Assembly: GCF_044647545.1 (NCBI RefSeq)
Contig: NZ_CP172818.1
Length of the DNA stretch: 64,000 bases
Strand: one strand, 5' to 3'
Origin: Escherichia coli
GTDB taxonomy: Bacteria > Pseudomonadota > Gammaproteobacteria > Enterobacterales > Enterobacteriaceae
The translations under genes were made by a program, and so were the position numbers. Of the stretch, positions 19,853 to 36,329 are shown piece by piece; positions within the stretch are counted from its first letter, which is position 1, and every line of letters begins with the position of its first letter. The notes under the pieces were generated by a model. The model did no database searches and had not been told where the DNA came from. It worked only from the letters and a program-made list of their open reading frames with translations.

Positions 19853-21103
19853 ATGGAAAGTAAAGTAGTTGTTCCGGCACAAGGCAAGAAGATCACCCTG
19901 CAAAACGGCAAACTCAACGTTCCTGAAAATCCGATTATCCCTTACATTGAAGGTGATGGAATCGGTGTAGATGTAACCCCAGCCATGCTGAAAGTGGTCG
20001 ACGCTGCAGTCGAGAAAGCCTATAAAGGCGAGCGTAAAATCTCCTGGATGGAAATTTACACCGGTGAAAAATCCACACAGGTTTATGGTCAGGATGTCTG
20101 GCTACCTGCTGAAACCCTTGATCTGATTCGTGAATATCGCGTTGCCATCAAAGGCCCGCTGACCACTCCGGTTGGTGGTGGTATTCGCTCTCTCAACGTT
20201 GCTCTGCGCCAGGAACTGGATCTCTACATCTGCCTGCGTCCGGTACGTTACTATCAGGGCACTCCAAGCCCGGTTAAACACCCTGAACTGACCGATATGG
20301 TTATCTTCCGTGAAAACTCGGAAGACATTTATGCGGGTATCGAATGGAAAGCAGACTCTGCCGACGCTGAGAAAGTGATTAAATTCCTGCGTGAAGAGAT
20401 GGGCGTGAAGAAAATTCGCTTCCCGGAACATTGCGGCATCGGTATTAAGCCGTGTTCTGAAGAAGGCACCAAACGTCTGGTTCGTGCAGCGATCGAATAC
20501 GCAATTGCTAACGATCGTGACTCTGTGACCCTGGTGCACAAAGGCAACATCATGAAGTTCACCGAAGGCGCGTTTAAAGACTGGGGCTACCAGCTGGCGC
20601 GTGAAGAGTTTGGCGGTGAACTGATCGACGGCGGCCCGTGGCTGAAAGTTAAAAACCCGAACACCGGCAAAGAGATCGTCATTAAAGACGTGATTGCTGA
20701 TGCATTCCTGCAACAGATCCTGCTGCGTCCGGCTGAATATGATGTTATCGCCTGTATGAACCTGAACGGTGACTACATTTCTGACGCCCTGGCAGCGCAG
20801 GTTGGCGGTATCGGTATCGCCCCTGGCGCAAACATCGGTGACGAATGCGCCCTGTTTGAAGCCACCCACGGTACTGCGCCGAAATATGCCGGTCAGGACA
20901 AAGTAAACCCAGGCTCTATTATTCTCTCCGCTGAGATGATGTTACGCCATATGGGCTGGACTGAAGCCGCAGACTTGATTGTTAAAGGTATGGAAGGCGC
21001 AATCAACGCCAAGACTGTAACCTATGACTTCGAACGTCTGATGGAAGGCGCTAAACTGCTGAAATGTTCAGAGTTTGGTGACGCGATCATCAAGAATATG
21101 TAA
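19853..21103 (+). CDS. icd: isocitrate dehydrogenase (NADP)
   Basis: 416-aa ORF; the last ~53 codons lie inside the prophage-borne duplicated segment. Confidence 0.95.
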
Positions 21104-21154
21104 TTACTACATGTGTTAAATATTGTAACGGGCGTATAACACGCCCGTTGTTTT
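20943..21154 (+). repeat. attL-side copy of the 212-bp direct duplication (icd 3' end plus terminator)
   Basis: Appears identical to 36118..36329 by visual alignment at a constant offset of 15175 bp. Confidence 0.85.
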
Positions 21155-30277: not shown

Positions 30278-30445
30278 ATGATCATGCTGATTCTCCGCCT
30301 CTGGTGGGCGGCGGTGCTTTTGCTGGCGTATGGTGCCGCTCATTTATCCCCCGGGGGTTTTGTTCCCGGGGCGTTGTGCCTGTTCTGGTCGTTGCTGGTG
30401 GCGCGAATCTGTTCGACACAGTCGTCTGTCGGCGGAGGTAAATAG
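30278..30445 (+). CDS. ymfR: small hydrophobic membrane peptide (55 aa)
   Basis: ATG 30278 to TAG 30445, below the ORF-track cut-off; two hydrophobic stretches ([33 protein letters not shown]). Confidence 0.4.
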
Positions 30446-30651
30446 TGTTCTTTTCGGGATTATTTCAACGAAAAAGCGACGCACCGGTGACCACGCCAGC
30501 AGAGCTGGCGGATGCCATCGGGTTGTCCTACGACACCTATACCGGAAAGCAGATCAGCAGCCAGCGGGCCATGCGACTGACGGCGGTTTTTTCCTGTGTC
30601 AGGGTGCTGGCAGAGTCGGTCGGGATGTTGCCTGCAATCTGTATCACCTGA
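30445..30651 (+). pseudogene. beeE: portal protein N-terminal fragment
   Basis: 68-aa ORF with portal-like N-terminus; downstream region has no continuous frame. Confidence 0.45.
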
Positions 30652-30841
30652 ACGGCAGCCTGAAACAGAGAGCCACGGCGAGCGTCTGCATAGCTGATCT
30701 CCACGCATCCCAATGGCTATATGACGCCGCAGGAGTTCTGGGAGCTGGTGGTCACCTGTCTGTGCCTGCGGGAAACTTTTACGCCTACAAAGTGAAAGCA
30801 TTTGGCGAAGTGGCTGAAACTGCTGCCCGTCGATCCCGGCT

Positions 30842-32211: not shown

Positions 32212-32841
32212 ATGCATCGTATAGACACGAAAACCGCGCAGAAGGATAAGTTCGGCGCGGGTAAGAACGGTTTTACCCGTGGTAACCCCCAGACCGGCAC
32301 ACCTGCCACCGATCTGGATGATGACTACTTTGACATGTTGCAGGAAGAACTTTGTAGCGTGGTGGAGGCCTCCGGTGCCAGCCTGGAGAAAGGGCGGCAT
32401 GACCAGATGCTTACCGCACTTCGTGCGCTGCTGTTAAGCCGCAAGAATCCGTTTGGCGATATCAAATCGGATGGCACTGTGCAAACGGCTCTCGAAAACC
32501 TTAGTTTAGGAGAAGGAGCAAAACTCAATGCAGCAACGGCTACATTAGGACGCACCGGTTTCATAGCTATACCGGTTATGATTGGTGGTATTGAGCAATC
32601 AGTAATCATTCAGTGGGGGTGGAATGCCGCAAAAGCATCTGCCTCTGGGGGGGATGGAAATACAGTTGTATTCCCGGTTGCGTTTAATAATGCCTGTGTT
32701 GCCGTTGTTGCAAATTATGACAATGTCAGCGCACCTATCAATGCAGTGGCAACGGGGGGATATACAACCACTTCGTTTTTATTACGGTGCGCAGCTCAAA
32801 CGGGTAGTTATTACTATAACTGGATTGCTATTGGGTATTAA
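32212..32841 (+). CDS. stfP: side tail fibre protein (constant part plus currently expressed variable part)
   Basis: 209-aa ORF; Gly/Ala/Thr-rich fibre-like C-terminus; crossover site lies inside the ORF at 32489..32514. Confidence 0.7.
   Translation: MHRIDTKTAQKDKFGAGKNGFTRGNPQTGTPATDLDDDYFDMLQEELCSVVEASGASLEKGRHDQMLTALRALLLSRKNPFGDIKSDGTVQTALENLSLGEGAKLNAATATLGRTGFIAIPVMIGGIEQSVIIQWGWNAAKASASGGDGNTVVFPVAFNNACVAVVANYDNVSAPINAVATGGYTTTSFLLRCAAQTGSYYYNWIAIGY
32489..32514 (+). other. Gin/Hin/Pin-type 26-bp recombination site (left)
   Basis: CTCTCGAAAACC-TT-AGTTTAGGAGAA fits the half-site pattern TTnTCnnAAACC / GGTTTnnGAGAA. Confidence 0.7.
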
Positions 32842-32842
32842 G

Positions 32843-33319
32843 ATGAAAATATACTGTTGCTTAAATACCGTTGGTTTTTTTATGGATGGCTGTGGCGTCA
32901 TTCCGCCAGATTCTAAAGAAATAACGGCAGAACACTGGCAGTCATTATTAAAATCTCAAGCTGAAGGAGGCGTGATCGATTTTTCTGTTTTTCCTCCTTC
33001 TATTAAAGAGGTTATCCGTACTCATGATGATGAAGTCGCAGATGCGAACTTTCAAAAGCAGATGCTTATCTCTGATGCAACTGATTTTATCAATAGCAGA
33101 CAGTGGCAGGGTAAGGCTGCATTGGGAAGACTTAAAGAAGATGAGCTGAAACAATCTGATTTGTGGGCTGGATTATCTGGACGCACTGGCGCTGGTCGAT
33201 ACCGCCAGTGCGCCGGATCTGAATGGCCTACGCCTCCGGCAGTTCAGGCCAGTAAATATCCGGTACAGTGCTGGTATCCGTTGCCATCACCGCGTCAATG
33301 TAATCCAGCACGGCGTTAA
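32843..33319 (+). CDS. tfaP: tail fibre assembly protein
   Basis: ATG 32843 (MKIYCC) 2 nt after stfP; WPTPP motif near the C-terminus; the frame stays open to 33319 (158 aa) and overlaps convergent tfaE, so the true stop is uncertain. Confidence 0.55.
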   Translation: MKIYCCLNTVGFFMDGCGVIPPDSKEITAEHWQSLLKSQAEGGVIDFSVFPPSIKEVIRTHDDEVADANFQKQMLISDATDFINSRQWQGKAALGRLKEDELKQSDLWAGLSGRTGAGRYRQCAGSEWPTPPAVQASKYPVQCWYPLPSPRQCNPARR

Positions 33320-33830
33320 GTCGGGTGTTTTCTGTCTGCGTCAGCTTCCTCCCGGCCTGCAATTTCAGTTGAATCAGACTAATTGAAGCCATTGCAGTAT
33401 CAATCAGTGACTGGCGCTGTGCTTCTGCCGCTTCTATTGCGGCACCGTATTGTGCCTCGGTATCGGTTACCCATTTCTCACCATCCCATTTATCGTATGG
33501 TGTTAACGGAGCGATAGTGGTCATATTTTCAGGGTAATCCCCTGGCGCTGTGATTTCTTTTGGTTCTCCCGTTTCGGTGCTATAAACAATTTCACCGCGA
33601 TGGTCTGGCACATATTTCCACGAGTTCAAATCCGTTGAGCGGCAAATTGCATAACCCGTTTTATGTGTACCAGGTGCATCTAAACAAGAACATGCCGGGA
33701 TACCGACACCGACAGCAAGATATTCGGTTGATGTTGAGATATATTCCTGTGTCCCATTATCATAGTTATAAACGGTAATATCCCCTGCCTTTACCGCGAT
33801 CAGCGCATCATTTAATACAGCTCCACCCAT
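33228..33830 (-). CDS. tfaE: tail fibre assembly protein (alternate orientation)
   Basis: 200-aa ORF ending in the canonical Tfa motif DIYWPELPEA. Confidence 0.75.
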   Translation of the reverse strand: MGGAVLNDALIAVKAGDITVYNYDNGTQEYISTSTEYLAVGVGIPACSCLDAPGTHKTGYAICRSTDLNSWKYVPDHRGEIVYSTETGEPKEITAPGDYPENMTTIAPLTPYDKWDGEKWVTDTEAQYGAAIEAAEAQRQSLIDTAMASISLIQLKLQAGRKLTQTENTRLNAVLDYIDAVMATDTSTVPDIYWPELPEA

Positions 33831-34390
33831 TATGCAGCCCTCACGATATAATTAAATGAAATATTTCGTGGACGTGATTCGTTACCGAATTTATCTGAAC
33901 CATCAGTATTTCTCGCTGAATATGTTTGGAGGATTGTCCCTGATGATGGATTCGCATTATATTCATTTGTTCCTGCTGGATAGTATGACATTGCACTATT
34001 GTCATCTTTGAAAACAGCAGACATCAATCCATCACCACCACTTCCGTAAGCAGTTGTAAGAAATGACGGTGATCGAAAGAAAGACTATTTTGTGCCGAAA
34101 GTAAGGGAACGACCAGAATCTACCCCGCGCCCATCATCCCAGCCACGAATAAACTCACCACGTAAATCAGGCAATTTATTTGTCGGGTAAGCCTTCGCCA
34201 GTTTTGGATATTCAACGGCAGAAAAAGCCGCACCGTTGCATTTCAGCCAGCCAGTAGGCGGTGTGGCTGAAGGCCACGGAACAGGCACACCAACGGGTAA
34301 TGCCGAACCTTCTCCCAAACCAAGGTTTATGAAAATGCGGAATAAGCGGCAAATGGCATCATTCCTGCTTTTGTCAGGGAGAGCTACCAT
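33830..34390 (-). pseudogene. stfE: alternate tail-fibre variable segment with in-frame TAG
   Basis: Two same-frame ORFs (34085..34390 and 33830..34027) separated by an amber codon at 34085..34087; N-terminal part carries a tail-collar-like motif (PVGVPVPWPSATPPTGWLKCNG...LPDLRGEFIRGWDDGRG). Confidence 0.6.
34308..34333 (-). other. Gin/Hin/Pin-type 26-bp recombination site (right, inverted)
   Basis: Minus strand TTTTCATAAACC-TT-GGTTTGGGAGAA; same TT core as the left site; adjacent to pin. Confidence 0.7.
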
Positions 34391-34941
34391 GCTTATTGGC
34401 TATGTATGTGTGTCAACAAATGACCGAAACACAAATCTACAGCGTAATGCGCTGAACTGTGCAGGATGCGACTCATTTTTGAAGACAAGATAAGCGGTAC
34501 AAAGTCTGAAAGGCCGGGACTGAAAAAACTGCTCAGGACATTATCGGCAGGTGACACGCTGGTGGTCTGGAAACTGGACCGGCTGGGGCGTAGTATGCGG
34601 CATCTGGTCATTCTGGTTGAGGAGTTGCGCGAACGTGGCGTTAATTTTCGCAGCCTAACAGATGCTATTGATATCAGCACATTCGATGGGGCGTTTTTCT
34701 TTATGTGATGGGGGCCTTGGCTGAAATTGAGCGTGAACTGATTGTTGAACGAACAAAAGCTGGACTGGAAACTGCTCGTGCACAGGGACGAATTGGTGGA
34801 CGTCGTCCCAAACTTACACCAGAACAATGGGCACAAGCTGGACGATTAATTGCAGCAGGAACTCCTCGCCAGAAGGTGGCGATTATCTATGATGTTGGTG
34901 TGTCAACTTTGTATAAGAGGTTTCCTGCAGGGGATAAATAA
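34389..34941 (+). pseudogene. pinE: serine invertase Pin disrupted by two frameshifts
   Basis: Resolvase/invertase sequence spread over three frames: 34389..34493 (MLIGYVCVSTNDRNTNLQRNALNCAGC), 34466..34708 (GDTLVVWKLDRLGRSM) and 34705..34941 (C-terminal HTH); total span 553 bp is two bases short of a 555-bp intact frame. Confidence 0.7.
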
Positions 34942-35047
34942 AGTTAAAGACACTTTGTGTACAAAAGAAAGTAAAACAACAGCAACTTGTTGCAATTTTA
35001 TCAATAAAAGTAGTATTGTCGTGAAAAATTGATTAAAGATTAATATT

Positions 35048-35881
35048 ATGCATGTTTTTGATAATAATGGAATTGAACTGAAAGCTGAGTGTTCGATAGG
35101 TGAAGAGGATGGTGTTTATGGTCTAATCCTTGAGTCGTGGGGGCCGGGTGACAGAAACAAAGATTACAATATCGCTCTTGATTATATCATTGAACGGTTG
35201 GTTGATTCTGGTGTATCCCAAGTCGTAGTATATCTGGCGTCATCATCAGTCAGAAAACATATGCATTCTTTGGATGAAAGAAAAATCCATCCTGGTGAAT
35301 ATTTTACTTTGATTGGTAATAGCCCCCGCGATATACGCTTGAAGATGTGTGGTTATCAGGCTTATTTTAGTCGTACGGGGAGAAAGGAAATTCCTTCCGG
35401 CAATAGAACGAAACGAATATTGATAAATGTTCCAGGTATTTATAGTGACAGTTTTTGGGCGTCTATAATACGTGGAGAACTATCAGAGCTTTCACAGCCT
35501 ACAGATGATGAATCGCTTCTGAATATGAGGGTTAGTAAATTAATTAAGAAAACGTTGAGTCAACCCGAGGGCTCCAGGAAACCAGTTGAGGTAGAAAGAC
35601 TACAAAAAGTTTATGTCCGAGACCCGATGGTAAAAGCTTGGATTTTACAGCAAAGTAAAGGTATATGTGAAAACTGTGGTAAAAATGCTCCGTTTTATTT
35701 AAATGATGGAAACCCATATTTGGAAGTACATCATGTAATTCCCCTGTCTTCAGGTGGTGCTGATACAACAGATAACTGTGTTGCCCTTTGTCCGAATTGC
35801 CATAGAGAATTGCACTATAGTAAAAATGCAAAAGAACTAATCGAGATGCTTTACGTTAATATAAACCGATTACAGAAATAA
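35048..35881 (+). CDS. mcrA: HNH endonuclease McrA (restriction of modified DNA)
   Basis: 277-aa ORF; C-terminal HNH motif HHVIPLSSGGADTTDNCVALCPNCHRELH; AT-rich. Confidence 0.85.
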   Translation: MHVFDNNGIELKAECSIGEEDGVYGLILESWGPGDRNKDYNIALDYIIERLVDSGVSQVVVYLASSSVRKHMHSLDERKIHPGEYFTLIGNSPRDIRLKMCGYQAYFSRTGRKEIPSGNRTKRILINVPGIYSDSFWASIIRGELSELSQPTDDESLLNMRVSKLIKKTLSQPEGSRKPVEVERLQKVYVRDPMVKAWILQQSKGICENCGKNAPFYLNDGNPYLEVHHVIPLSSGGADTTDNCVALCPNCHRELHYSKNAKELIEMLYVNINRLQK

Positions 35882-36117
35882 AATTATTTATTAAAGTCAC
35901 ATTTAAGACGTAATACCCTACAGGGTAAAAATTTTCTCTGATCTTAACTTCTGCAAATGTTAACTGCTATTTTTATGCTAAAAATGGTTATCAAAACTCA
36001 AAAACACATGTTTATAATCAATGAGTTATAGAAATGCTAAGGGCTAATGAGTTATATGCAAATTAGTAAAATTATGTTGCTATGTCAGATAGTTACGATT
36101 TAGTCATCTAACTAATG

Positions 36118-36278
36118 TACGCCATATGGGCTGGACTGAAGCCGCAGACTTGATTGTTAAAGGTATGGAAGGCGCAATCAACGCCAAGACTGTAACCTAT
36201 GACTTCGAACGTCTGATGGAAGGCGCTAAACTGCTGAAATGTTCAGAGTTTGGTGACGCGATCATCAAGAATATGTAA
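36118..36278 (+). pseudogene. icdC: icd 3' fragment (last ~53 codons) left at attR
   Basis: Sequence appears identical to icd 20943..21103 but has no upstream coding continuation. Confidence 0.8.
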
Positions 36279-36329
36279 TTACTACATGTGTTAAATATTG
36301 TAACGGGCGTATAACACGCCCGTTGTTTT
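36118..36329 (+). repeat. attR-side copy of the 212-bp direct duplication
   Basis: Same sequence as 20943..21154, including the terminator hairpin. Confidence 0.85.

Follow-up and report, generated by a model that had tools for sequence, protein, structure and literature searches.

A decayed P-segment inversion switch of the cryptic prophage e14 in Escherichia coli, most likely frozen in the stfP-tfaP orientation

The inversion switch of the cryptic prophage e14 of Escherichia coli is already known, having been described since 1985 and re-studied in 2025. The 1797-bp e14 P segment is flanked by TTGGTTTGGGAGAAGG and CCTTCTCCCAAACCAA and is inverted by PinE and also, in trans, by PinQ, which is encoded in another prophage; among 562 E. 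coli genomes, one in three has the segment in the inverted state (Kirigo et al. 2025, PMC12529663). The mechanism of inversion by the related enzymes Hin and Gin is established, and wild-type Hin requires both Fis and the enhancer for activity (PMC3798978). In a working e14 system, dimers of PinE, a small serine invertase, would bind the two 26-bp sites, and the bound sites would come together on supercoiled DNA with the enhancer, a Fis-bound element within the 5′ part of pin. Serine attack would then cut all four strands at the 2-bp core of both sites, one pair of subunits would rotate by 180 degrees, and religation would invert the segment, so that the fibre gene exchanges its C-terminal half together with the chaperone.

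The locus described here shares with the G segment of Mu (Gin) and the C segment of P1 (Cin) the 26-bp sites that consist of a half-site, 2 bp and a second half-site (the P1 core is TT/AA as well), the split of the fibre into a constant and a variable part, convergent chaperone genes, an invertase gene abutting one of the sites, and, for a putative enhancer, a position in the 5′ end of that gene. Unlike those segments, which span 3 kb in Mu and 4.2 kb in P1 and belong to viable phages with intact invertases, it is 1.8 kb long, resides in a defective prophage and is pseudogenised. By gene order and sequence compared with K-12, the locus is the P segment of e14, inserted in icd. In the window, that is, the whole 64-kb stretch of E. 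coli DNA that was analysed, the e14 gene order ymfQ-stfP-tfaP-tfaE-stfE-pinE-mcrA is matched at ~32.2-35.9 kb, and the 3′ end of icd on one side and a duplicated icd fragment on the other indicate that the prophage is inserted in icd, like e14. The original prediction of an invertible tail-fibre segment of the Gin/Hin/Pin type, about 1.85 kb in length and holding convergent tfaP and tfaE genes, was thus right: the segment measures 1847 bp with both sites (1819 bp from core to core), tfaP (plus strand) and tfaE (minus strand) converge within it, and the orientation present is stfP-tfaP, which is that of the K-12 reference. The genes of the locus are as follows.

~20.9-21.1 kb: 3′ end of icd
32212..32841, plus strand: stfP (ycfK), 209 aa, intact, 207/209 residues identical to K-12 StfP (L65M, G98S); constant part 32212-32502, variable part (within the segment) 32503-32841
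32843..33319, plus strand: tfaP, damaged; the K-12 stop is lost and the open reading frame extends to 33319
33228..33830, minus strand: tfaE, 200 aa, intact open reading frame; an allele different from that of K-12 (84% amino acid identity)
33830..34321, minus strand: stfE′, alternate variable part, pseudogene
34324..34390, minus strand: stfE leader, outside the segment, reading into the right crossover site
34389..34941, plus strand: pin′, invertase pseudogene with four 1-bp indels and Arg7>Cys; the first open reading frame ends after 34 aa
35048-35881, plus strand: mcrA
~36.1 kb: duplicated icd fragment

The resemblance to the K-12 e14/PinE system extends to the prophage itself, its site in icd, the gene order, the crossover positions, the core dinucleotide and the reading-frame logic. 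Identity to the K-12 counterparts is 99-100% for stfP with its variable part, for most of tfaP, for the 3′ third of pin and for mcrA. The relationship is mosaic: positions 32510-33155 and 34760-36000 are identical to K-12, whereas the ~1.6-kb patch between them (33155-34760) is only ~88% identical. Among the differences from K-12 e14 are a different tfaE-stfE′ allele and inactivating lesions in pin, tfaP, stfE′ and the stfE leader. Among complete E. coli genomes, the patch as a whole has no match above ~89-90% identity. The exact TfaE protein has no entry on record, and two DNA strings specific to the window were missing from the GTDB species representatives.

Judged by its sequence, this locus is a fossil and not a working switch, because the invertase cannot be made, the region homologous to the enhancer has a deletion, and the alternate half of the fibre is broken. 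It is highly probable that the e14 P-segment switch has decayed here, with the segment most likely fixed in the stfP-tfaP orientation, the term ‘locked’ being drawn here from a single assembled sequence. For annotation, this amounts to an e14 P segment with pinE and stfE pseudogenes, fixed in the stfP orientation, and has little import beyond that. The locus is also a natural example of the decay of a phase-variation switch, in which the recombinase and the silent cassette are lost before the short cis-acting sites.

That the recombinase next to the segment is dead, as had been proposed, is borne out by the alignment of pin′ with the pinE genes of K-12 and strain EC21Z, which reveals a -1 indel at codon 28, a +1 at codon 98, a -1 at codon 102 and a -1 at codon 106. 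Homology to pinE is accordingly split over three frames, with amino acid identity of 91-96% across residues 29-184 and 86% across residues 1-28. In addition to the frameshifts, pin′ carries a substitution of Arg7. In alignments, the residues of PinE pair one to one with those of Gin and are shifted by one relative to gamma-delta resolvase, such that Pin Ser9 corresponds to Ser10 and Pin Arg7 to the catalytic Arg8 of the gamma-delta and Tn3 resolvases; mutation of R8 in Tn3 resolvase greatly reduces cleavage and recombination (PMC2794168). No other serine recombinase was found in the 64-kb window. An apparent His106>Tyr change in pin′ was rejected as a by-product of a 1-bp deletion on the parsimonious alignment; Hin-H107Y is a known mutation of the enhancer-independent type, which such a change would match.

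The enhancer had been suggested to lie in the upstream region, which is the wrong place, the enhancers of the Hin, Gin, Cin and Pin systems being located within the 5′ part of the gene for the invertase. The P1 record annotates the enhancer at nt 19-90 of cin, and the title of a 1985 article by Kahmann reportedly places it within gin. At the equivalent position, pin′ has a stretch with homology to this cin enhancer, and it contains two conserved blocks that we interpret as putative Fis sites.

34407..34477, plus strand: stretch homologous to the annotated cin recombinational enhancer
34410-34424, plus strand: proximal conserved block GTGTCAACAAATGAC, intact, ~94 bp from the core
34459-34473, plus strand: distal block GTGCAGGATGCGA-CT, with a 1-bp deletion

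In Salmonella, the proximal Fis site is located ~100 bp from hixL (PMC3798978). The distal block reads GTGCAGGATGCGAGC in pinE, and a G-N13-C frame is common to pinE, gin and cin; in an alignment of pin′ with two pinE alleles, gin and cin, the 1-bp deletion breaks this conserved spacing. Given that Fis makes its only critical base contact at the G/C pair at +/-7 (PMC4784862) and that the G-N13-C spacing is lost, the distal Fis site is probably weakened. Crude scoring with a Fis motif did not single out the enhancer sites, and we relied on the homology to the cin enhancer instead.

The variable half that would be brought into use by inversion is broken as well. Compared to an intact, 99.6%-identical allele from a P2-like prophage, stfE′ has lost one base (~34056) and gained another (~34104), 48 bp apart; between them 16 codons are scrambled, and a TAG appears in frame at 34085-34087, 78 codons beyond the joint. 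In the leader of the same gene, a 1-bp deletion at 34338 puts the K-12-type start (ATG at 34359-34357) out of frame, so that translation from it would read MPFAAYSAFS followed by a stop; the upstream ATG at 34390 is the only in-frame start. In tfaP, ~18 codons of a conserved C-terminal motif are scrambled between an extra base at 33165 (+1) and a missing one at 33219 (-1), although the shifted frame still codes for LDYLDALALVDTASAPDL. Of the two C-terminal halves and their chaperones, then, the StfP variable part and tfaE are open, and stfE′ and the C-terminus of tfaP are not. The view that the architecture has been preserved thus holds for the sites and the frames at the crossover and fails for stfE′, with its frameshift pair and TAG, for the scrambled C-terminus of TfaP and for the out-of-frame K-12-type stfE start. 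Similarly, the word ‘intact’, used in the original description of the crossover sites, applies to those sites alone, given the damage to pin, the enhancer-homologous stretch, stfE′ and tfaP, and even there the left site has two private substitutions.

The tfaE-stfE′ cassette is closely related to the fibre tip (gpH C-terminus and tfa) of a P2-like prophage of E. coli FDAARGOS_497. Positions 33243-34326 are 99.6% identical to that prophage over 1085 bp, with 2 mismatches and 2 single-base gaps, and tfaE by itself is 99.6% identical at the DNA level to its tfa gene. In the P2-like prophage, the tip is part of one continuous 513-aa fibre gene with no invertase nearby, whereas the allele in the window has the two frameshifting indels. 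The homology stops 3 bp past the crossover core, and at this point the P2-like fibre gene contains a site-like 26-mer with half-sites of 11/12 and 9/12. Thus, e14 and a P2-like prophage have a fibre-tip cassette in common, and the homology ends at the crossover point.

The two crossover sites were compared with a half-site consensus that we built from gixL and gixR of Mu, cixL and cixR of P1 (annotated in the P1 record), and pixL and pixR of K-12.

32489..32514, plus strand: left crossover site (pixL-like), CTCTCGAAAACC TT AGTTTAGGAGAA; core TT at 32501-32502, half-sites 9/12 and 11/12
34310..34335, plus strand: right crossover site (pixR-like), TTCTCCCAAACC AA GGTTTATGAAAA; core AA at 34322-34323, half-sites 11/12 and 10/12

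Each site has a 2-bp core between two imperfect half-sites of 12 bp, and the two sites are in inverted orientation. The left site lies exactly where it had been placed, and the right one, originally assigned to 34308-34333, was 2 bp off: a register scan gives an inverted match between the left and right sites of 20/26 at 34310-34335 compared to 7/26 at 34308-34333. A generic inverted-repeat finder did not report this pair, which was recovered by the register scan. A search of the 64 kb with the pattern TCNNAAACCNNGGTTTNNGA, allowing up to 2 mismatches, yielded 2 matches, both at the ends of the segment and the right one perfect, against 0.22 expected by chance; 2 matches were reached in 1 of 100 shuffles. 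The four half-sites in the window match the consensus at 9-11 of 12 positions, as do the twelve reference half-sites, and the sites therefore withstand a formal comparison with the gix/cix/pix-type consensus, as anticipated for gix/hix/pix-type sites. They are not identical to those of K-12. The inner half of the left site has two G>A changes, at 32503 and 32508, and this pair is absent from all 5,426 complete E. coli genomes; in the right site, G replaces C at 34324. The core-adjacent base of the left inner half (A at 32503; T in the half-site) occurs in 0 of the 12 reference half-sites and is the sole base in the window half-sites that falls beyond the reference range, but the core-adjacent position is not invariant, and the functional right site of K-12 deviates there too.

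The cores themselves, TT at 32501-32502 and AA at 34322-34323, are the same dinucleotide on opposite strands, in accord with the original description of inverted sites with identical TT cores. In both the stfP frame (start 32212; reading ENLSLGEG) and the minus-strand frame (start 34390; reading INLGLGEG), the core occupies positions 2-3 of a CTT (Leu) codon, so both readings and the common codon phase at the crossover had been identified correctly. Inversion in silico is in frame and joins ...TALENL to GLGEGSALP.... The resulting fusion of the stfP constant part with the stfE′ part ends after 175 aa, which would make it a truncated fibre. The reciprocal product is a chimera of the leader and the StfP variable part, with its K-12-type start out of frame. 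Thus, in this copy, the sites are recognisable and compatible in phase, and could still serve as substrates, but the resident invertase cannot be made.

This situation leaves room for an invertase acting from elsewhere, and the best surviving alternative to a frozen switch, although in our judgement an unlikely one, is that the segment still switches through an enzyme of the PinQ/PinR kind or one from a Mu-, P1- or P2-type prophage. Pin-family invertases can substitute for one another, the two sites match the consensus and have identical cores, and the remainder of the genome, beyond the 64-kb window, could encode such an enzyme, as PinQ and PinR act in K-12. Overproduction of PinQ, which another K-12 prophage encodes, brings inversion of the e14 P segment to ~88%, but at native PinQ levels K-12 pinE mutants are locked (PMC12529663). 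Furthermore, the window itself encodes no second serine recombinase, the cis-acting region homologous to the enhancer has its 1-bp deletion, and both inversion products are defective, so that little selectable function would be left. The escape route by a trans-acting invertase, as originally envisaged, therefore holds to the extent that PinQ works in trans on the K-12 segment (PMC12529663), and fails in that here it would yield a truncated alternate fibre instead of a working one. For a trans-acting invertase to flip the segment, both the damaged enhancer and the mutated left site would have to allow it. The source strain, if available, might be a natural pin-null background for examining trans-acting invertases on pix sites with a core-adjacent substitution.

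The combination of the segment and the sites is also that of the PinQ/StfE2 anti-T2 defence (PMC12529663), in which respect inversion here would give the chimera of the leader and the StfP variable part; unlike in that system, the K-12-type start of the chimera is out of frame, and there is no PinQ in the window. We consider it a long shot that the sites persist amid the decay of pin, stfE′ and tfaP for a reason of their own, either as a substrate of a trans-acting invertase in a PinQ/StfE2-like defence, with the ATG at 34390 as the start, or as capture points for fibre tips. On the latter reading, the location of the cassette joint exactly at the crossover core, together with the site-like 26-mer in the P2-like gene, might reflect a second role of the sites as entry points for fibre tips captured from other phages.

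Decay of the switch would be an illusion if the frameshifts were sequencing or assembly errors and the switch were really intact, which appears highly improbable. Single-base changes make up most of the indels, several of them in short homopolymer runs. However, all 29 chromosomal flank proteins of K-12 (29/29; ~28 kb) map to the window in a single frame, free of gaps and stops, and the indels relative to K-12 are confined to the P-segment/pin patch and the ymfR/portal remnant, a pseudogene in K-12 as well. With the flank genes unbroken and the indels clustered, assembly noise is unlikely. Moreover, pin′ also has R7C, and its 5′ part reaches no more than 93.7% identity with any intact allele. 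Across the chromosomal flank, identity to K-12 is 97.5%, and the closest of the other complete E. coli genomes reaches 98.8%.

The notion that the inverted 26-mers merely reflect a conserved L-G-L-G-E-G coding motif at the joint between the constant and variable parts of the fibre, as the very similar 26-mer within the uninterrupted fibre gene of the invertase-less P2-like prophage might suggest, is hardly credible, given that the homologous K-12 positions are experimentally mapped end-points of inversion (PMC12529663) and that no fibre coding sequence extends over the outer half of the right site, which adjoins pin. Genome assemblies point the same way: a 400-bp K-12 inverted-state junction constructed in silico matches many assemblies derived from K-12 (MG1655, DH5alpha, DH1 and NEB Turbo) end to end at 100% identity, and other K-12 assemblies have the reference orientation, so that both orientations exist, with the junction exactly at the core.

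Homology between the window and the fibre gene-tfa locus of the P2-like prophage of E. coli FDAARGOS_497 (L004), at 99.6% identity, stops 3 bp beyond the crossover core of the right site, of which it takes in window 34310-34326. Because it ends there, the joint of the fibre-tip cassette coincides with the recombination point. The 513-aa uninterrupted fibre gene of the P2-like prophage contains a 26-mer resembling pix and cix, the sites of Pin and Cin, with no invertase nearby:

L004 5461-5486, full-length pix/cix-like 26-mer, TTCTCCCAAACC AA GGTATGCGAGAA, half-sites 11/12 and 9/12

Two G>A substitutions, 5 bp apart at window 32503 and 32508, both fall in the left crossover site, in its inner half-site. 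The sequence around these positions is otherwise that of K-12, and one of the two changes causes the replacement of Gly98 by Ser in the tail-fibre protein StfP. Both substitutions are absent from all 5,426 complete E. coli genomes searched, among which the best full-length match to the left-site stretch is 98.3%, that is, exactly two mismatches.

The invertase pseudogene pin' carries a substitution in the region of the dimer helix:

34728-34730 (+), pin' codon 114, Met114 to Ile

Replacement of the same residue in Gin (M114V) yields an enhancer-independent enzyme, but with pin' frameshifted, its own change at codon 114 has no bearing here. In tfaP, stfE' and pin', single-base indels that compensate each other (+1/-1 or -1/+1) form three separate pairs, the partners being 11-54 bp apart:

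33165/33219 (+), pair in the chaperone gene tfaP
34056/34104 (-), pair in the alternate fibre pseudogene stfE'
34682/34693 (+), pair in pin'

The prophage is flanked by icd sequences:

~20943-21125, icd 3' end, left prophage end
~36122-36305, icd fragment, right prophage end

These are 100% identical to each other over ~183 bp, and the same stretch shows only 91.7% identity to the K-12 right-end fragment. The mcrA product (35048-35881) is 100% identical to that of K-12, in contrast to the indel-rich ymfR/portal-remnant region (30296-30817), which differs from K-12, where it is already a pseudogene, by 11 small indels.
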